Assembly (NCBI GenBank): GCA_036565345.1
Contig: DATCNH010000081.1
Location: 2,118-66,117, forward strand
Source: Candidatus Limnocylindria bacterium
GTDB taxonomy: Bacteria; Chloroflexota; Limnocylindria; P2-11E
DNA length: 64,000 bases
Reading direction: 5' to 3'
Shown: positions 7,264-41,582 of the stretch, piece after piece
Layout: the number at the start of each line of letters is the position of its first letter
Numbering within the stretch: position 1 is the first letter of the stretch
The notes under the pieces: generated by a model
Told to the model about the DNA's origin: nothing
The model's input: only the letters and a program-made list of their open reading frames with translations
Databases searched by the model: none
Made by a program: the position numbers and the translations under genes

Positions 7264-7779
7264 TCATGATATGGGGCGGAGCTGGAAGACCAGCGCGATC
7301 AGCGCGCCGAGCCCAAGAGCCACGCCGTAGGGGATCCAAGTCTTCATCAGGGCGTGCATCGTATTGGGGGGATCCCCTGGCGCCGGCCGGCTCAGGCGGC
7401 GTAGGACGATGAAGACGATGGCGATGATGCCGCCGGTGAGCGCACCCCAGACCGCGGCCTGGAGCAGGAACGCGGTCCCCTTGAGGGCGCCCACGGCCAT
7501 GAGGAGCTTTCCGTCCCCGGCCTTCAGGCCACCTGCGGCGTAGAAGGGGTACGAGACCAAGAACCCGACGACGAGCCCGGCCAGATGGTCGAGCAGGCCC
7601 CCAGCGAGCGGACCGCCAGGAAAGCCCGCCGGCCCGGCGAAGCTCTCAGCGAGACCGAACAGGATCCCGACGAGCATCGCCGGATAGGTCGCGACGTTCG
7701 GGATGCGCCGGAACCGCCAATCGGTCCAGATGACCGTCAGGACGAAGCCGACCAGGACCGCATCCTCGGCGATCTCCAG
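7264..7779 (-). CDS. cpaA: prepilin peptidase CpaA/TadV (A24 family), likely non-canonical start
   Basis: The track ORF (7264-7677, MLVGILFGL...) is the conserved core. The same frame continues upstream as ...LEIAEDAVLVGFVLTVIWTDWRFRRIPNVATYPA and contains the family hallmark D-x-R-x-RRIPN plus the first TM helix. There is no ATG/GTG/TTG up to the in-frame stop at 7882-7884. The CTG at 7777-7779 would give MEIAEDAVLVGF... Confidence 0.7.
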   Translation of the reverse strand: MEIAEDAVLVGFVLTVIWTDWRFRRIPNVATYPAMLVGILFGLAESFAGPAGFPGGPLAGGLLDHLAGLVVGFLVSYPFYAAGGLKAGDGKLLMAVGALKGTAFLLQAAVWGALTGGIIAIVFIVLRRLSRPAPGDPPNTMHALMKTWIPYGVALGLGALIALVFQLRPIS

Positions 7780-7868
7780 CGCGTCGATGAGCCACCCCTC
7801 TCCGCTGATGAAAAAGGCGGCGCCCGCCGACTGCGGGCGCCGCCTGGACCGTATCCGGATCGGACCGA

Positions 7869-8027
7869 CTAGGTGAGGTTGTTACCGATGTTGCTGAAGA
7901 TGTTCTGGATCTGCCCGCGAAGGAAGATCATCGCAACGATGACCGCGATCGCGATGACGGCGATGATGAGTGCATATTCGACGAGTCCCTGACCGTCGTC
8001 GTCGCGGAAGAAGCGCTGAATGTCCAT
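7869..8027 (-). CDS. flp: Flp-family type IVb pilin precursor
   Basis: MDIQRFFRDDDGQGLVEYALIIAVIAIAVIVAMIF... carries the Flp motif G/QGLVEYAL followed by a hydrophobic helix. ATG at 8025-8027 is preceded by a perfect AAGGAG. Confidence 0.85.
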   Translation of the reverse strand: MDIQRFFRDDDGQGLVEYALIIAVIAIAVIVAMIFLRGQIQNIFSNIGNNLT

Positions 8028-26192: not shown

Positions 26193-26522
26193 TCAGATCC
26201 GTTCGTAACGGGCGACGTCGAGGACGAAGACGGTGGCTCCACCATACGAAACTTCGACCGGATAGGGCATGTAGAACTCGCCCGGCTCCATCACCGGGGG
26301 CATCGGGCTGATGTACTGATTCCGGGCATGGCAGGTCTCCCGGATGATGCCGAGGACGTCCTCGACCTGGGCTTCCTCCACCCCGACCAGGATCGAGCCG
26401 GTGCTCTGCTTCAGGAACCCGCCGGTCGATTGCAGGCGTGTCACGCGATATTCCTTGTCGGTGAGCGCGTTCACCAGCGCTCCCGCGTCCTCGGGATGGA
26501 CGAGCGCGACGACCAGCTTCAT
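26193..26522 (-). CDS. darA: PII-like c-di-AMP receptor DarA/PstA (DUF970)
   Basis: [62 protein letters not shown]... (109 aa). ATG overlaps the tmk stop (ATGA). The 417-aa track ORF is a frame artefact. Confidence 0.8.
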   Translation of the reverse strand: MKLVVALVHPEDAGALVNALTDKEYRVTRLQSTGGFLKQSTGSILVGVEEAQVEDVLGIIRETCHARNQYISPMPPVMEPGEFYMPYPVEVSYGGATVFVLDVARYERI

Positions 26523-27163
26523 GGCGTCCGCAGTGTACCGAGGAGCGGCTCGACCTCGCGACGGATATCGGTCGCGACGGCCGCCCGGTCGCGATCGCCG
26601 GCGACCACGACGATCCGGCCCGGCTCGGCGGCGGCGAGCCGGAGATAGCCGTCGCGGACCCGCTGGTGGAAGGCCTGCTCGTCCGCTTCGAACCGATCCC
26701 AGCCACGGCCGGTGCCCCGGGCCAAGCCGCGGGCCGCGGCGACCTCGATCGGGACGTCCAGGAGGAAGGTGCGGTCGGGGCGGACCGCACCGACCGCGAA
26801 CCGCGTGATCGCATCGAGCCCGGCCCGATCGGCCCCGTGTCCCGCGCCCTGGTAGGCAAGGGTCGAATCGAAGAAGCGGTCCACGACCACGATCGTCCCG
26901 GTCGCCAGCGCCGGACCGATGACATCGCGAACCAGCTGCGCCCGCGCCGCGCTGAAGAGGAGCGCCTGGGTGTTCTCGGCGAGTGGGATCTCCTGGGCGT
27001 GGAGGAGGATCTCGCGCACGCGTTCCCCCACCAGGGTGCTCCCGGGGTCCTGGAGCACGACGACCGTCTCGCCACGGGCGGTAAGCCACTCGGCCAGCGC
27101 GCGGGCTTGCGCGGACTTTCCCGACGCCTCGCCGCCCTCGAACGAAATGAGCAGGCCGCTCAG
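26519..27163 (-). CDS. tmk: thymidylate kinase Tmk, apparently initiated at CTG
   Basis: In frame: (L)[26 protein letters not shown]...[10 protein letters not shown]...[12 protein letters not shown] (P-loop, DRx motif, lid). The first ATG/GTG/TTG (GTG 27058) lies after the P-loop, and the frame stays open at least 60 codons upstream without a canonical start. The CTG at 27161-27163 overlaps the ycf45-like TGA as CTGA. Confidence 0.75.
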
Positions 27164-28674
27164 CGGTATATCTGCACCCGCCGGAAGGGCTCGTGTCCGG
27201 TGCTGCGCGACGACAGGTTCGCACGCTCGATGAGCTCGTGCTGGAGCTTGCGGATGTATGCGCCCTGCGGCTGAAGCTCCACGTCGCTCCGGCCTTCGAC
27301 GATCGCTTCGATCGCCTCGCGCGTCTCGTCGAGGGCATCTTCCTCGGGCCCGCGCCGCAGCTCGAACACGCTCGTGAGCGCGCTCGCGATCTGGGACGAC
27401 GAATTGCTGCGTGCCACGTAGATCGGGACGCCGTTCGACTCGGCATTCCGCAGGCGCGGAGTCTTCCGGCGGTAGTAGTTCTTGAGCGTGATCACCACAT
27501 CGGCCTCCTCGGGCTCGCGAACGATGGCGACCGGCAGGCCGAGGCCGCGGGCGGCGTCCTCGAGCCGGCTCCAGGAGAGCCCGAAGGGATAGACCTTCAC
27601 CATCTCGCGTGCCGCCGACGAGGGAGCACGTGGCGTGCTGCGGCGCTCGAGCGCTTCAGCCGGCTGGCGGGTCGGCTTGGTGGCGCTCACCCGGACATCG
27701 CCCTCCGGATCGCGCTCCCGCTGCTCGGGCGAGACCGGCAGGCCAAGGAGGATGGCGTCCACCGTCGCGGCGACGTCGAGATACAGCGCGACCTTCTGGT
27801 ACGCCTGGATCTCGACGAGCACCTGGAAGGTCGGCGGGCCCTTACGCTCCAGGACCGACTTCTGGGTGCCGCGCCGGCGGGCCTCCTCGTCGCCGAGGGT
27901 GACCGTCTGGATCCCGCCGACCAGGTCGGCGAGGGTCGGGTTCAGCATGAGGTTCTCGAGCGTGTTCCCGTGTGCGGTGGCGACCAGCTGAACGCCTCGC
28001 TCGGCGATGGTGCGGGCGGCCTGGGCCTCCTGCTCGGTACCGATCTCATCGATGACGACCACCTCGGGCATGTGGTTCTCGACCGCCTCGATCATCACCG
28101 CGTGCTGCAGCGCCGGTGTCGCGACCTGCATCCGGCGCGCCCGCCCGATCCCGGGGTGCGGGATATCCCCGTCGCCGGCGATCTCGTTGGACGTGTCGAC
28201 GATGACCACACGCTTCTTCAGGTCATCCGCCAGGACGCGCGCGACCTCGCGGAGCAGCGTGGTCTTGCCGACGCCGGGACGCCCAAGGAGCAGGATGCTC
28301 CGTTCGGACTCCACGACATCGCGGATGATCTCCATCGTCCCGTACACCGCCCGGCCGACCCGCAGGGTCAGCCCCACGACCTTGCCGGCGCGATTCCGGA
28401 GGGCGCTGATGCGGTGGAGCGTTCGCTCGATGCCCGCACGGTTATCCCCGCCGAACTGCCCGATCCGGGAGATGACGTACGCGAGGTCCTCGGCCGTCAC
28501 CTCACGGTGTGACAGCATTTCCTCGCGTCCGGAGAACCGGGCCTCAGGGATGCGCCCGATGTCCATGACGATCTCGAGCAGGCCCTCCAGCCCGTCGAGG
28601 CCGCGGATGCGCTGGCCCACATCGGGCGGTAGCGCATCGAGGATGACGTCCAGATCGTCCCGTTCCGTCTTCAT
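27160..28674 (-). CDS. R3H-domain AAA+ ATPase (Ycf45/SpoIIIAA-like)
   Basis: Walker [17 protein letters not shown], Walker [10 protein letters not shown], and a C-terminal R3H-like nucleic-acid-binding region. ATG at 28674 preceded by GGTGGTGAG. Confidence 0.75.
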
Positions 28675-29663
28675 CTCACCACCGCCGGCGCGAGCGCCGG
28701 CTCTTCGATGCGGACCGCGAGCTCCCTGACGAAAAGCATAGCCGTCGCCACCTCGCGGAACCCCTCGCCCACGAGCGCACGGGCGACGTGCTCTTCGTAG
28801 GAACGGACCGACGATGTGACCGGCCGGCCGGAGTCGAGCTCGCGCGACGCACCGCGGACCAGCTCGCGGGCCAGCTCGGTGTCGCCGCCGGCGGTCCGGA
28901 TCTTCACCACATGGGGATGGCGATCGAGCCCCCGGAAGCTCGCGGCAAAGCCTCGGATCCGCTGGCCGCCGTCCTCGCCGGCGATCATCGCGGTGGCCCG
29001 CCGCATCGTGATGGGGTTCCCGCTCACCAGATGCGGCGGATCGAACGCGCCGGACCGGCGGCCGACATCGAAGTCCTCGACCGTCAGCTGCTCGGCCCGC
29101 TGGACCGCGTGCGGCGTCGTCGCGACGTAGAAGCGGAAAAGGTCATGGGCGTCGACCCGTCGCGCGGGATGGCCCGGGAGCCGGCCTGACGGCGCGGCCA
29201 GCGGTGCCCGGGGTGCGGCGTACCAGGTCTCCCGGGTATAGGAATAGAAGCCGGCCTGGAAGAACGTCTCCCGCGGGCGTGTCTCGTCGGAGACCGCCCC
29301 AAATACCCGCAGCATCCCGCGCTGCGCGGCGGCGGCGGCGATGTGCGCGAGGAGCCGGAACGAACCCTCGGACCCGGACGGGTCGGGCAGTGCGGCGAGC
29401 GCCAGCACGACCCACTCCGGGCGTCGCCCGGCATAGACGAGGGACACGCTGCACAGCCGGCCGCGGTATTCCTCGAGGTACACCCGCAGGCGGGTCCGCA
29501 TGCCGAGCGTTCCGGGGAGGAGGGTGAGCCAGCCGGCGAACGCACCGGCGGCAAGCGCACGGGGCAGCACCGAGCCGACGATCGCCTCAGGGACCGCCGT
29601 CGTGTCCGCGAGGAACTTCGCGACCCGGGGCAGGTCCGTCGGCATGGCCGCACGCGCGGTCAT
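28671..29663 (-). CDS. hypothetical protein (possible GNAT-fold, two-domain)
   Basis: ATG 29661-29663 overlaps the pdxT stop (ATGA) and the gene's own stop overlaps the next start (ATGA). No firm family assignment could be made from the sequence alone. Confidence 0.45.
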
Positions 29664-30235
29664 CCGCCGGCCCCGAGCGCGAGGAAATAGGCGTGGAAGC
29701 GATCGTCGCGGGTGAGCTCGGGATGGAACGATGTCGCGAGCAGCCGGTCCTGGCGGACGGCGACGATGGCCCCGCCCGGCAGGGTCGAGAGGACCTCGAC
29801 GCCATCGCCGACGCGAGCGATGAGCGGGGAGCGAATGAAGACCGCATGGAATGGCGCGGCACCCAGACGAGGAACGTCGAGGTCGGCCTCGAACGATTCG
29901 CGCTGGCGACCGAAGGCATTGCGCCTGACAGTGAGATCCATCGCCCCAAGGATCGGATGCGGATGCCCCGGGACATCCCGCGCCAGGAAGATCGCGCCCG
30001 CGCAGGTGCCCCACACCGCCATCCCCGCTGCGATCCGCTCACGGAGCTTGGGGATGAACCCGTAGCGCTCCGCCAGCTTCCCGATCGTCGTGCTCTCGCC
30101 CCCCGGGATGATCAGCGCATCGATGGCGTCGAGCTGCTCCGGCCAGCGCACGTCGATCGCTGACGCACTCAGCCGGCCAAGGGTCTCAAGATGCTCGCGA
30201 AAATCGCCCTGGAGCCCAAGGACCCCTGCGCGCAT
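29660..30235 (-). CDS. pdxT: pyridoxal 5'-phosphate synthase glutaminase subunit PdxT
   Basis: MRAGVLGLQGDFREHLE...GTCAGAIFL...SFHPELT (class I GATase triad). Alternative ATG at 30244. Confidence 0.85.
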   Translation of the reverse strand: MRAGVLGLQGDFREHLETLGRLSASAIDVRWPEQLDAIDALIIPGGESTTIGKLAERYGFIPKLRERIAAGMAVWGTCAGAIFLARDVPGHPHPILGAMDLTVRRNAFGRQRESFEADLDVPRLGAAPFHAVFIRSPLIARVGDGVEVLSTLPGGAIVAVRQDRLLATSFHPELTRDDRFHAYFLALGAGG

Positions 30236-30249
30236 CTTCGTCATTGAAC

Positions 30250-30324
30250 GGTGACTGACCACTTACTGCGTCCGTGCGAAGCACGGCGAAGCAAACGAGT
30301 CAGTCACCCTTGGTGACTGACTCG

Positions 30325-30326
<2 letters not shown>
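30250..30326 (-). repeat. structured pdxS-pdxT intergenic element: three copies of GGTGACTGAC, two forming a perfect 15-bp inverted repeat, plus a small CGTGC-GAA-GCACG hairpin
   Basis: Seen directly: AACGAGTCAGTCACC-CTT-GGTGACTGACTCGTT (30294-30326) abuts the pdxS stop, and a third GGTGACTGACC lies at 30250-30260 next to the pdxT start. Confidence 0.4.
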
Positions 30327-31233
<907 letters not shown>

Positions 31234-37227: not shown

Positions 37228-39187
37228 TGGTAGGTCAGTGGCGCGGTATCGCACGAAGGCGACCCGTTTCCACTGACCCCCTTTCAAACCGGACGTGCGG
37301 TGTTCCCGCATCCGGCTTAGCGATGGCCTTCTCGTGCAGCACTGACGGCTTCGGGTAGCGAACCGTCCCACGCAACCGGTGCAGGCCTTGGCCCCAAAAC
37401 CACTCCTGGGTCCACTGGGCAGCGCGACCGGCTCGGAGGTTGCGCCCGGCTCGCCGCACGAGGAAGCGGCGTAGCCGAGTACTCACGTAGCGGTCGATGT
37501 CCAGGAACTTGCGAGCGGCGTTGCCGCTGCGGAAGTACTCGCCCCAGCCGCGGAGCACCGGGTTGAGTCGCTCGATCAGGACGCGGACGTCCTTCACCCC
37601 GCTGGCCCGTGGATCGGTGAGCTCATGCACCCGTCGGCGGACTCGTCGCATGCTTCGCGGCGAGGGCCAGCGCTGCAGGTAGTAGCGGCGATAGCCGCGT
37701 ACAAGAAGCTTTCCCGAGACGCGCTTGCGCAGGTAGTGACCGAGGAACTCGAACCCTGCTTGCCCGTGGCTCAGTTGGAGGGTCCGCGTCTTCTCCGGGT
37801 GGAGCTGCAGTCGCAGCCGGTCGAGGATGACCCGCACCCTCCGCTCGGCCTCAGCCAGCGCTTCGGGTGATCGGGTGAGCACCACGAAGTCGTCGGCGTA
37901 TCGGACGAGTGTTCCAAGCTGCGCGCAGCGCCGCTCCCAGACCAGATCGAGCCGGTGCAGGTAGATGTTGGCCAGCAACGGGGAGATCACCCCGCCCTGG
38001 GGAACGCCCGCGACGGTCTCGCGGAGCTGTCCGTTCACCAGCACCCCTGCACCCAGCCACCGGCGAATGAGCTTGAGCACCTTGCGGTCGCTGATCCGCG
38101 TTGCCACCAGCACCATCAGGCACTCGTGGTCGAGCGAGCCGAAGAAGTCGGCCAGATCGGCGTCGAGGACGTACTCGGCACCGTCATTCGCCGCTTCGCG
38201 GATCGCTTCGAGCGCGTGGACGGCGGAGCGCTTGGGCCGGTAGCCGTACGAGGACCGACAGAAGTCGGCCTCGAAGATCGGCTCGAGCACCAGCTTGGCC
38301 GCCATCTGCGCGATGCGATCTTTGACCGTGGGGATGCCCAGGGGGCGCATGCCACCGGCCGGTTTGGGGATCTGCCGCCTCAGTACGGGAGACGGTCGGT
38401 ACCTGCCAGAGCGGAGCTCATCCGCCAACTCCTCCAGGAGCCGCGCGATGCCGTACCCCTCCGCCACCGCAAGCGTCACGCTATCGACGCCCGCAGCACC
38501 GTGATTGCGCCGGACGCGCTGCCATGCCTCCTGCAGGATGTCAGGCCTGCAGATGCGGTCGAAGAGGGCATGGAAACGACGACCCGGTTGTCGCTTCGCT
38601 GCGACGAAGAGCGCGCGCTGGAGGCGACGGACGTTGTCGCTGGGAGCGATCCCCGCGGGGTGGTTGGGTCCGGAGGACCGGACCATGCCCGCGCCCGTAC
38701 CGTTCGCGCGCGCGTGACCAAAGTGAGGGCCCTTCCCTCCGGACAGGTTCTGTTGCCTGCCCATCGTCGGTACTACGACCCCCTCGGACTCCCGCTGCGC
38801 ACCGCTCGACTTCGCCATCGGCTTATACGTGCGGTCCTGCCCTGACCAAGGCGGCGCAGACGGGTCTCTCCTGTTCCGCATCGAACCTTGTGCGCGTGCC
38901 GTTCCCTCTACCCCGGGGAGACCCACGGCGCCGTTTCCGGACGGGTGCGCCGCGGACGTGGCCTTCGCCGTGACGTGCGCGGCTCGGCTCTCCCATTGTT
39001 TCTTTGACGAGGCGGCAGGATTCACTTCATGTTGCGGCCCGCGCGCTTGCTCCCTCCAAAGAGGCTCTTGACGCCCCGCTCGGACGACAGACCTCTCGGT
39101 CTGCGTCTGGGGCCTGCTACCAGGCGTTCCGGTACTTACCTGCGCGGGACCTCCACCCGCTGGCTCGATGCAGCTTCCAGGACGCAC
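37222..39187 (-). mobile_element. complete group II intron (~1.97 kb) with internal RT/maturase ORF
   Basis: 5' end GTGCG (revcomp of 39183-39187). Domain V recognisable at about 37285-37319 (AAGCCGGAUGCGGGAACACCGCACGUCCGGUUU, with AGC triad and GAAC loop). A domain VI-like stem GGGGUCAGUGG...CCACUGACC-UA-CC with a bulged A follows. The intron-encoded protein ORF sits in domain IV. Boundaries are +/- about 5 nt. Confidence 0.8.
37235..38686 (-). CDS. group II intron-encoded reverse transcriptase/maturase (no endonuclease domain visible)
   Basis: N-terminal RRLQRALFVAAKRQPGRRFHALFDRICRPDIL..WQRVRRNHGAAGVD, RT blocks 1-7 with YADDFVV, and a maturase X domain. No Cys/His HNH module. Start taken at ATG 38684-38686; the track ORF is extended through domains I-III. 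Confidence 0.85.
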   Translation of the reverse strand: MVRSSGPNHPAGIAPSDNVRRLQRALFVAAKRQPGRRFHALFDRICRPDILQEAWQRVRRNHGAAGVDSVTLAVAEGYGIARLLEELADELRSGRYRPSPVLRRQIPKPAGGMRPLGIPTVKDRIAQMAAKLVLEPIFEADFCRSSYGYRPKRSAVHALEAIREAANDGAEYVLDADLADFFGSLDHECLMVLVATRISDRKVLKLIRRWLGAGVLVNGQLRETVAGVPQGGVISPLLANIYLHRLDLVWERRCAQLGTLVRYADDFVVLTRSPEALAEAERRVRVILDRLRLQLHPEKTRTLQLSHGQAGFEFLGHYLRKRVSGKLLVRGYRRYYLQRWPSPRSMRRVRRRVHELTDPRASGVKDVRVLIERLNPVLRGWGEYFRSGNAARKFLDIDRYVSTRLRRFLVRRAGRNLRAGRAAQWTQEWFWGQGLHRLRGTVRYPKPSVLHEKAIAKPDAGTPHVRFERGSVETGRLRAIPRH

Positions 39188-39215
39188 CACGCGTTTCAGT
39201 CTAGGAGCGCGGCGG

Positions 39216-41582
39216 TCACGGTCTCCTCGTCGGTTTTGGCACCGGCGTGGGTGCGGGTGGTGGCGTGACCGGGATGGCCCCCGGACTTCCTGACGGAACC
39301 GGCGTCACGCTCGGGCGGACCGGGGCGTAGCCGCAAAGGTTCCAATTGAACCGCCCGTAGTTGTGGAGCCCCGCGGCGGCCTCGCGACCCCAGCGGTCGA
39401 TGTCCTTCTGCCAATCGGGGAATGGCGTGGTGAGCCGGTAGCCGCAGGAGGTGTAGATCGCGCGGTCGTCCGTCGTCGGCTCGGTGCCCTGGACGAACTG
39501 CTCGGTCCAGCGGAAATTGGACGGGCAGTACGGGCCCGGCAGCCTGCCCGATCCGTTGCCGCCGGTGAGCGCCGGATTGACGCACACGACCCGATCGACG
39601 ATACCGGCGGGCCGCTTGAAGTCGTCCGGGGGCAGCCCACCGACGACCGTCTTCATGTAGTCGCGCCACAGGATGCCGGGACCGAGGGCCGACGAGATCC
39701 CGTACATCACCTCGTTGTTCGAGTTCCCCATCCAGACCGCGGTCAGCCGCTGCGGGGTGTAGCCGATCGCAAGCACGTCCTGGAGGTTGTCGGTCGTCCC
39801 GGTCTTCAGCGCCGCCGGGCGCCCGATGCTGGTGAACGGACCGAAGACGAAGGAGCCGCGCACCGGGTCGGTGTTGTCCTTCAGGATGTTCGTCATCACG
39901 TAGGCGTAGCGCTCGTCGAGTACCTGCTTGGTCTCGGGCTTCGAGTAGTCCTTCACGACCTTGCCGTCGCGGTCGACGATCTTCAGGATCATCGTCGGCT
40001 CGATCCGTCGGCCTCCGTTGGCGACGACCTGGTACGCGCTCGCCATCTCGATCAGCCGCATCTCGCCGGCGCCGATGCCGAAGGAGATCCCGAGCTGGGA
40101 TCGGTCCCAGTCACGCTGGATGCCGAGCTGATGGATCGTGTCGATGATCCCGTCGACGCCCACGATCCGGGCGACGTTCAGCGCCGGCAGGTTGAGCGAC
40201 TCGCGGAGCGACTGGCGGATCGTCGTCGGCCCATGCTGCTCCTTCGTCGCGTCTCGCGGCTTGTATTGCGTACCGTCGCCACTCGGCATGGTGAACTCGA
40301 TGTCGTTCAACACGGTCGCGGCGGTCATGTTCGCCTTCAGCATGCCGGCGAGGTAGGTGAACAGCTTGAACGTCGATCCCGGCTGGCGAAGCCCGATCCC
40401 CGCCACGTCGTAGTCGCCCTGGACCTGCGGCGATCGGTCGTAGTAGTCCTTGCTGCCGACGTAGGCGAGGACCTCCCCGGTCGTCGGATCCATGGTGATG
40501 AGCGCGGCGTTGTTCACGTTCGAGCTCTTCAGGTTGTTGACGTGATCCCGCACCTCTTTCTCGGCCAGCTGCTGCATGTTCCAGTCGAGGCTGGTGTAGA
40601 TGCGGTAGCCGCCACGATAGGCGGCCTTCTCGCCGAGGACATTGATGATCTGCTCGCGCACCCGGAAGGTGAAGTGCGGCGCGTAGAGCGATGTGCTGGC
40701 CGGTGTGACCTTGATCGGCTCGTTCTTCGCCGCAGCCGCTTGGGCATCGGTGATGTAGCCCTGGTCGACCATCGCGTCCAGCACCAGGACGCGCCGGGCG
40801 GCGGCGGCGGCCGGGTTCTGGATCGGGTCGTACTCCGAGGGCGCCTGGGGAAGACCGGCCAGGAGCGCCATCTGCCCGAGGGTCAGCTGGCGAAGGTCGC
40901 CGACCCCGAAGTACGTCTTCGCGGCGGCCTTCAGGCCGTACGCCTGGTTCCCGTAGAAGATCTGATTGAAGTACATCTCGATGATCTGCTGCTTGGTGAA
41001 CGTGCGCGTTGCCTCGATGGCGAGCATCGCCTCCTTGATCTTCCGAGTCAGGGTGGGCTCGTCACCGAGCAGCCGGGTCTTGATCAGCTGCTGGGTGATC
41101 GTCGATCCGCCCTGGGCGATCCCGCCCTTGGCGAGGTTCGCCTGCAGGGCGCGGGCGATGCCTCCGACGTCGATGCCGGGATTCGTCCAGAAGGAGTGAT
41201 CCTCGATCGCGACCGTGGCGTCCTGCATGAGCTGGGGAACGTCCGCCAGCGCGATGAGCTCGCGCCGCTCGTCCTCCAGGGTGTACAGCAGGTGCTCGCC
41301 CGACCGGTCATAGATGAACGTCGACAGCGGGACGGGGACGGTGGCGAGGTCGTGGGCCGCCGGAAGATCCGCTGCGAAGTAGCCGAGGAAGGCCGCCGCA
41401 GAGCTGCCGGCGAAGATGCCGAAGGTGATGAGGACCGCGGTGAGGATGCCGGCGACCGTCCCGAGCTTGGACGCGGGGGCGTACCGCCGGGACAGCCGTC
41501 CGCCCTTCCGGTGGGGAAAGCGGTAGCTGCGGTAGGCATGGCCGAGGCGAACGCTGCGGTGGGAGGTCGCCATGGTGTTCAC
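39216..41582 (-). CDS. ponA: class A penicillin-binding protein (PBP1A-type transglycosylase/transpeptidase)
   Basis: GT51 motifs (EDHSFWTNPGID, GGSTITQQLIK), SxxK (STFK), SxN, KTG(T), and a Pro-rich C-terminal tail. Confidence 0.9.
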   Translation of the reverse strand: MNTMATSHRSVRLGHAYRSYRFPHRKGGRLSRRYAPASKLGTVAGILTAVLITFGIFAGSSAAAFLGYFAADLPAAHDLATVPVPLSTFIYDRSGEHLLYTLEDERRELIALADVPQLMQDATVAIEDHSFWTNPGIDVGGIARALQANLAKGGIAQGGSTITQQLIKTRLLGDEPTLTRKIKEAMLAIEATRTFTKQQIIEMYFNQIFYGNQAYGLKAAAKTYFGVGDLRQLTLGQMALLAGLPQAPSEYDPIQNPAAAAARRVLVLDAMVDQGYITDAQAAAAKNEPIKVTPASTSLYAPHFTFRVREQIINVLGEKAAYRGGYRIYTSLDWNMQQLAEKEVRDHVNNLKSSNVNNAALITMDPTTGEVLAYVGSKDYYDRSPQVQGDYDVAGIGLRQPGSTFKLFTYLAGMLKANMTAATVLNDIEFTMPSGDGTQYKPRDATKEQHGPTTIRQSLRESLNLPALNVARIVGVDGIIDTIHQLGIQRDWDRSQLGISFGIGAGEMRLIEMASAYQVVANGGRRIEPTMILKIVDRDGKVVKDYSKPETKQVLDERYAYVMTNILKDNTDPVRGSFVFGPFTSIGRPAALKTGTTDNLQDVLAIGYTPQRLTAVWMGNSNNEVMYGISSALGPGILWRDYMKTVVGGLPPDDFKRPAGIVDRVVCVNPALTGGNGSGRLPGPYCPSNFRWTEQFVQGTEPTTDDRAIYTSCGYRLTTPFPDWQKDIDRWGREAAAGLHNYGRFNWNLCGYAPVRPSVTPVPSGSPGAIPVTPPPAPTPVPKPTRRP

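Follow-up and report, generated by a model that had tools for sequence, protein, structure and literature searches.

The gene for thymidylate kinase (tmk) in the 64,000-nucleotide stretch of Candidatus Limnocylindria DNA analyzed here (the window) is probably translated by the initiator tRNA from a CUG codon at 27163-27161 on the minus strand, mostly via termination-reinitiation at the UGA stop codon that overlaps it. We base this proposal on comparison of the window with related loci and on the properties of the encoded protein.

The tmk coding sequence (26519..27163, minus strand; 214 codons plus a TGA) was identified by its matches to Pfam Thymidylate_kin (PF02223) and to thymidylate kinases in the PDB. 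The protein started at the CTG scored 146.9 bits against a Pfam cut-off of 27, with residues 8-198 covering profile positions 1-183 of 185, and PDB thymidylate kinases matched it at E=5e-42 in alignments beginning at residue 2. Residues 1-5 of the solved structures aligned with residues 2-6 of the query, placing their starts within 0-4 residues of the CTG position, so that initiation at the CTG would yield a natural N-terminus, as the earlier note on this DNA had expected of an alignment of homologues. The DR(Y/F) motif after strand beta-3 is present and is invariant in relatives. The P-loop, GxxxxGK[ST] directly after strand beta-1, is likewise present within codons 6-17, provided that translation starts upstream of 27136. 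A Tmk lacking the P-loop has no nucleotide-binding site, as is established for P-loop kinases.

All canonical start codons of the tmk frame lie 3' of the P-loop (GGEASGKS, codons 10-17; 27113..27136, minus strand). The first of them, GTG at 27056..27058 (minus strand), is codon 36, lies 18 codons 3' of the P-loop, and is the choice of gene callers, giving a 179-aa product. No ATG, GTG, or TTG occurs in the tmk frame between the upstream in-frame stop codon and this GTG, and the 164 open codons 5' of the CTG bring the leader before GTG 27058 to 199 codons. These observations bear out the earlier claims that tmk lacks a canonical start ahead of its P-loop and that its frame extends far upstream free of ATG, GTG, or TTG.

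At the junction on the minus strand, the upstream gene reads ...cag ata tac cgC TGA, and the tmk frame from the CTG reads CTG AGC GGC CTG CTC ATT TCG TTC GAG GGC GGC GAG GCG TCG GGA AAG TCC. The proposed initiation codon (codon 1; 27161..27163, minus strand) and the TGA of the upstream gene (27160..27162, minus strand) have a T and a G in common, forming the CTGA overlap (cgCTGAgc) that the earlier note had described. Other near-cognate codons are in the tmk frame of the window, namely ATA at codon -2 (27169), CTG at codon 4 (27154), and ATT at codon 6 (27148). Codon 1 is singled out among these solely by comparison with relatives, so that the earlier view of this CTG as the only plausible initiator holds once relatives are compared but not for the window alone.

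The tmk gene belongs to a co-directional block (26519-31233, minus strand) of pdxS, pdxT, a hypothetical gene, the R3H/AAA ATPase gene, tmk, and darA, in which every junction downstream of pdxT is a four-base overlap. On the minus strand, pdxT (29660..30262; SNO glutamine amidotransferase by Pfam) is followed in this overlap chain by the hypothetical gene (28671..29663; relatives call the same 330-aa product), which has ATGA overlaps on both sides. The ycf45-like gene upstream of tmk (27160..28674, minus strand) combines AAA ATPase (Spore_III_AA-like), PTPase-like, and R3H domains by Pfam and ends in ...RRVQIYR*, a C-terminus conserved in relatives. Downstream, a darA-like cyclic-di-AMP receptor gene (26193..26522, minus strand; Pfam CdAMP_rec) overlaps the tmk stop codon by ATGA. 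The ATGA overlaps that had been pointed out at pdxT/hyp, hyp/ycf45-like gene, and tmk/darA are thus all present, and the CTGA at tmk is the same arrangement as these ATGA junctions. All close relatives fetched keep the order hyp-R3H ATPase-tmk-darA and have an HD-domain gene after darA. A consensus scan found no promoter-like site within the tmk operon, and a terminator-like hairpin lies 3' of darA.

The window contains 12 four-base overlaps (six ATGA, four GTGA, one TTGA, and one CTGA), which makes coupled junctions the usual arrangement in this genome. The suggestion that CUG initiation is routine in this organism fared less well, as tmk has the sole CTG start among the approximately 58 genes and 12 four-base overlaps of the window. 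We found no initiator tRNA within the window, where the only tRNA is a tRNA-Arg(CCG). Elsewhere, the window holds a group II intron (Rfam group-II-D1D4-4 at 39027-39162, 81 bits) between a polyprenyl synthetase gene and the gene at 39216..41582; a 651-codon open reading frame (37235..39190, minus strand) is probably the intron-encoded protein.

Conservation and evolution of the tmk junction

Related loci came from a genome scan, a metagenome scan, and look-ups of exact proteins; the 12 look-ups supplied most of the DNA evidence. The closest proteins to those of the window, which has a GC content of 65-73%, bear names from Candidatus Limnocylindria/Limnocylindrales (Chloroflexota), and the scan of metagenome contigs yielded only two close relatives (L061 and L068). 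A ccg CTG AGC GGN junction, again with no canonical start before the P-loop, was found in the window and in seven further independent lineages. The loci with this junction were drawn from NCBI, ENA, JGI, and Logan assemblies of different samples: L061 (JRHI01000221.1, NCBI GCA_000763215.1), L146 (NCBI GCA_036741455.1, 99% identical to the window), L147/L148 (NCBI GCA_054928615.1 and GCA_054928595.1), L142-L145 (four ENA samples), L141 and L153 (both JGI), and L152 (Logan). Because the same base is present in independent assemblies from these four data sources, a sequencing error turning ATG, GTG, or TTG into CTG is excluded. On the base-calling error raised earlier, the C stands in eight lineages that are independent of one another and were assembled from different samples with different assemblers.

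Other relatives have a canonical start codon at or next to this position. Three nested close relatives (L149, L150, and L151) have ccg TTG A.. exactly in place of the CTG, and tcg GTG AGC stands there in Limnocylindria that are more distant (L062-L066; 61-64% protein identity). In L067, L069, L122, and L002, a GTGA overlap lies one codon further upstream, and L001 and L003 have a separate, non-overlapping GTG shortly past the upstream stop codon. At 20 of 20 related loci compared, a CTG, TTG, or GTG was found in register with the stop-start overlap (CTGA, TTGA, or GTGA) kept. The presence of TTG or GTG at the same position in relatives means that the CTG is the orthologue of a genuine start codon.

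The segment between the CTG and the first canonical start also behaves as coding sequence. Among carriers of the CTG, 10 of the 16 codons from 2 to 17 differ, all synonymously apart from one I/L change, and across relatives the P-loop amino acids are invariant while their codons vary synonymously. This almost exclusively synonymous variation indicates that the P-loop segment is translated and under purifying selection as protein. Together with the TTG or GTG at the exact position in relatives and the eight CTG lineages, this selection on the P-loop codons supports the earlier proposal of the CTG as the tmk initiator.

A neighbor-joining tree of the tmk coding sequence, from which codon 1 was omitted, separated a CTG/TTG in-group from a GTG out-group. 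The CTG occurs on both main branches of the in-group, at pairwise nucleotide identities of 77-88%, and TTG appears at two nested positions, one next to the window lineage and the other next to L142. On these sequences, a CTG ancestor followed by two C-to-T changes would be the most parsimonious history.

Only the first base of the CTG is free to vary, and the T and G are fixed by the overlapping TGA; conservation of these two bases is therefore uninformative about start function. [quoted passage not shown] A persisting C is what codon bias together with weak selection on start-codon identity would give, and the persistence of this base across the compared loci would thus show tolerance of the CTG rather than selection for it.

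In two CTG lineages, a Leu codon near the start has become TTG, at codon 5 in L152 and at codon 4 in L153, although only 2% of the Leu codons in this genome are TTG. These changes may have arisen by chance or as compensation that places a canonical start slightly inside the gene, at the fourth or fifth codon.

Reading of the CUG

In the mechanism that we favor, ribosomes would finish the R3H-ATPase gene at the UGA (27162-27160), stay on the mRNA, step one base back, and restart at the CUG (27163-27161), which the initiator tRNA would presumably decode. The overlap geometry, along with the lack of a conserved Shine-Dalgarno sequence, suggests that ribosomes would be delivered by re-initiation rather than by de novo binding. 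Initiation at CUG in E. coli is approximately 1-2% of that at AUG (10.1101/063800), and a low yield from the CUG may be acceptable for Tmk, a low-abundance enzyme. The C was probably fixed because small amounts of Tmk would suffice and because coupled re-initiation would tolerate a weak start codon.

Overlapping gene pairs in E. coli and Haloferax are translated by termination-reinitiation coupling with a variable contribution of the Shine-Dalgarno sequence (PMC6728339; review PMC12548453). The tmk junction resembles the ATGA and GTGA coupled pairs described in these organisms (Huber et al. 2019, PMC6728339; PMC12548453) in that the genes are on the same strand, overlap by four bases as part of a chain, often lack a Shine-Dalgarno sequence, and keep this geometry in relatives. 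Unlike the tested pairs, in which the overlapping start is AUG or GUG, that of tmk is CUG. Three points count against the favored mechanism. Re-initiation at a CUGA junction lacks documented precedent, as M. tuberculosis, with 515 NUGA overlaps, has a few UUG starts and no CUG start among them (10.1101/2022.06.01.494293); the C of the CTG is also favored by the neutral Arg codon usage of the upstream gene (CGC, 43%); and the window has the other near-cognate codons given above (ATA, CTG, and ATT).

The main rival to re-initiation, to which we give a small but appreciable chance, is that free 30S subunits initiate de novo at this CUG, in a lineage with initiation machinery that is poor at rejecting near-cognate codons; translation of the upstream gene would then be irrelevant. 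A second gene in the window, cpaA, speaks for this reading, since its apparent start is an AUC that follows a strong, conserved Shine-Dalgarno sequence and is not overlapped by an upstream gene (see below), implying that near-cognate starts work here without coupling. Two features of the tmk junction argue against it: the 4-base overlap geometry is strictly kept in all relatives, and the sequence upstream of tmk contains no conserved Shine-Dalgarno-like element. Immediately before the start, lineages vary among cgg cgg gtg cag, cgc gtg cag, and cgg gtc cag. A Shine-Dalgarno-driven start for tmk was accordingly rejected, as relatives do not conserve the GGCGGGTG that the window has 12-19 nt upstream. 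No unusual RNA structure was found at the tmk junction, with a predicted fold no better than those of shuffled sequences (z=0.76). A terminator scan flagged a small hairpin, TGAGCGGCCTGCTCA followed by TTTCGTT (27148-27162, minus strand), which starts at the TGA/CTG junction; it has three GC pairs, is of a kind expected at chance level, and is not conserved in relatives.

Initiation at another or at several of the near-cognate codons (ATA 27169, CTG 27154, and ATT 27148), yielding a slightly longer or shorter Tmk, is improbable. All three are in frame in the window, and a start at the ATT would retain the entire Pfam domain, but these codons vary among relatives: codon -2 is ATA, ATC, or CTA; codon 4 is CTG, CTC, CTA, or TTG; and codon 6 is ATT, CTT, CTC, or CTG. 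L147/L148 contain none of the alternative near-cognate codons, leaving the CTG at codon 1 as the sole near-cognate codon from -30 to +8. Neither ATT 27148 nor ATA 27169 was retained as a candidate start, since neither is conserved and both are absent in L147.

We consider it very unlikely that Tmk is made as a fusion to the R3H ATPase, whether by a programmed -1 frameshift or by elongation resumed past the stop codon without initiator tRNA. The 164 open codons of the tmk frame upstream in the window speak for a fusion, but a long open frame is expected at 69% GC and that of L061 extends just 28 codons upstream. Furthermore, no X XXY YYZ slippery heptamer is present in the window overlap or conserved among relatives, which have their own TTG or GTG at the exact position, some of them as a non-overlapping GTG (L001 and L003). 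An artifact or gene decay, by sequencing error, pseudogene formation, or a shortened Tmk from GTG 27058, finds some backing in the short products given by gene callers and public annotation (P0002, 179 aa; P0027, “dTMP kinase,” 177 aa), yet it is scarcely credible and already refuted as far as sequence comparison reaches, considering the same base in assemblies from four data sources, the strong purifying selection on the P-loop codons, and the missing nucleotide-binding site of the shortened protein.

Termination-reinitiation at the CUGA therefore remains our preferred reading of the tmk junction, and near-cognate starts of other conserved genes offer points of comparison. In Deinococcus-Thermus, an ATC start of dnaA and a conserved CTG start of rpsL have been proven by proteomics (Baudet et al. 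2010, PMC2830850), and a plasmid RepA in E. coli uses a CTG start (PMC2830850). As in the Deinococcus-Thermus cases, a near-cognate codon in tmk would replace the canonical start of a conserved, important gene, is kept across relatives, and leads callers to mis-set the start; likewise, the two codons are found together in one lineage, CTG in tmk and ATC in cpaA. The Deinococcus-Thermus starts rest on N-terminal peptides, whereas those described here are predicted from sequence comparison. In addition, the lineage here is of a different phylum (Chloroflexota, class Limnocylindria), and the Deinococcus-Thermus starts are not described as four-base stop-start overlaps, which the tmk case is. Conserved CTG and ATC starts are thus already known in other bacteria and are found here in another phylum and in other genes, with the CUGA stop-start overlap being the less usual part of the tmk case. 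The starts of E. coli infC and pcnB (AUU) are similar in that a near-cognate codon holds a low-abundance protein low, and infC is also closely preceded by another gene (PMC3592434). Unlike tmk, for which no such logic is evident, these two genes belong to the known IF3 feedback loop. Our literature search found no paper linking Limnocylindria with start codons.

A second, probable non-canonical start in cpaA

We screened all of the approximately 58 genes of the window for open, uncovered leaders with coding-like GC3. Only tmk and cpaA, the Flp-pilus prepilin peptidase gene, were flagged; in the other genes with uncovered leaders, no Pfam domain reaches 5' of the first canonical start. The cpaA open frame (Peptidase_A24; 7264..7881, minus strand) has its first canonical start at ATG 7677, which is preceded by both the catalytic-Asp motif TDWRFRRIPN and the first membrane helix. 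Relatives at 63-68% identity begin with MDALRL... exactly at the position of an ATC codon (7786..7788, minus strand), which is the putative start of cpaA, and a Shine-Dalgarno sequence, GGAGAGGGG (7795..7803, minus strand), lies six bases before it. In L154/L155 and L156/L157, GGAGAGGGG, six variable bases, and ATC GAC GCN CTG are kept, and L156/L157 have an in-frame TAG two codons upstream of the ATC. The corresponding region of JRHI01000221.1 reads GGAGGGGG-cacgc-ATC GAC GCC TTG. From this conservation, cpaA probably starts at AUC, driven by the strong Shine-Dalgarno sequence.

Upstream of cpaA is a Flp pilin gene of 52 aa (7869..8027, minus strand). A terminator-like GC-rich hairpin with a T-run (7811..7844, minus strand) lies between the two genes and recurs in relatives (L154-L158). 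It resembles a partial terminator, by which the ratio of pilin to peptidase would be set.

With tmk and cpaA, 2 of approximately 58 genes in the window have probable near-cognate starts, and two cases in 64 kb suggest a lineage-level tolerance of such starts. E. coli has a few near-cognate-start genes per genome, and both CTG and ATC figure among the possible starts in NCBI translation table 11. A broader, speculative possibility, which we hold only tentatively, is that start-codon selection is lax throughout Limnocylindria, owing perhaps to changes in IF3, the initiator tRNA, or the 16S P-site, so that near-cognate codons would head around 1% or more of genes, essential ones included, and CUGA would be a working re-initiation junction. 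To our knowledge, CUGA has been documented as such a junction in no bacterium.

Annotation and start-codon stringency in Limnocylindria

Of the 25 Tmk clusters closest to the window protein (77-99% identity), 19 have calls of 177-197 aa that start past the P-loop, 3 have calls of 210-211 aa that begin at an internal Leu codon, and only 3 have calls of 214 aa from the CTG position. In NCBI GCA_036741455.1, P0002 is the same short 179-aa call from the GTG at codon 36. These calls suggest that the missing canonical start of tmk is a property of the clade and not of one assembly. Calls for cpaA are 159-171 aa and miss the first membrane helix. Pipelines that accept only ATG, GTG, and TTG systematically mis-annotate tmk and cpaA in Limnocylindria, so that protein families and metabolic reconstructions are skewed for this uncultured class, which is widespread in soil and freshwater.

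The CUGA kept over approximately 20% nucleotide divergence, with TTG nested within it twice, amounts to a natural experiment that asks how little the identity of the start codon matters once an overlapping stop codon delivers the ribosome. The tmk CUGA can thus serve as a natural gauge of how stringent start-codon choice is when ribosomes re-initiate.
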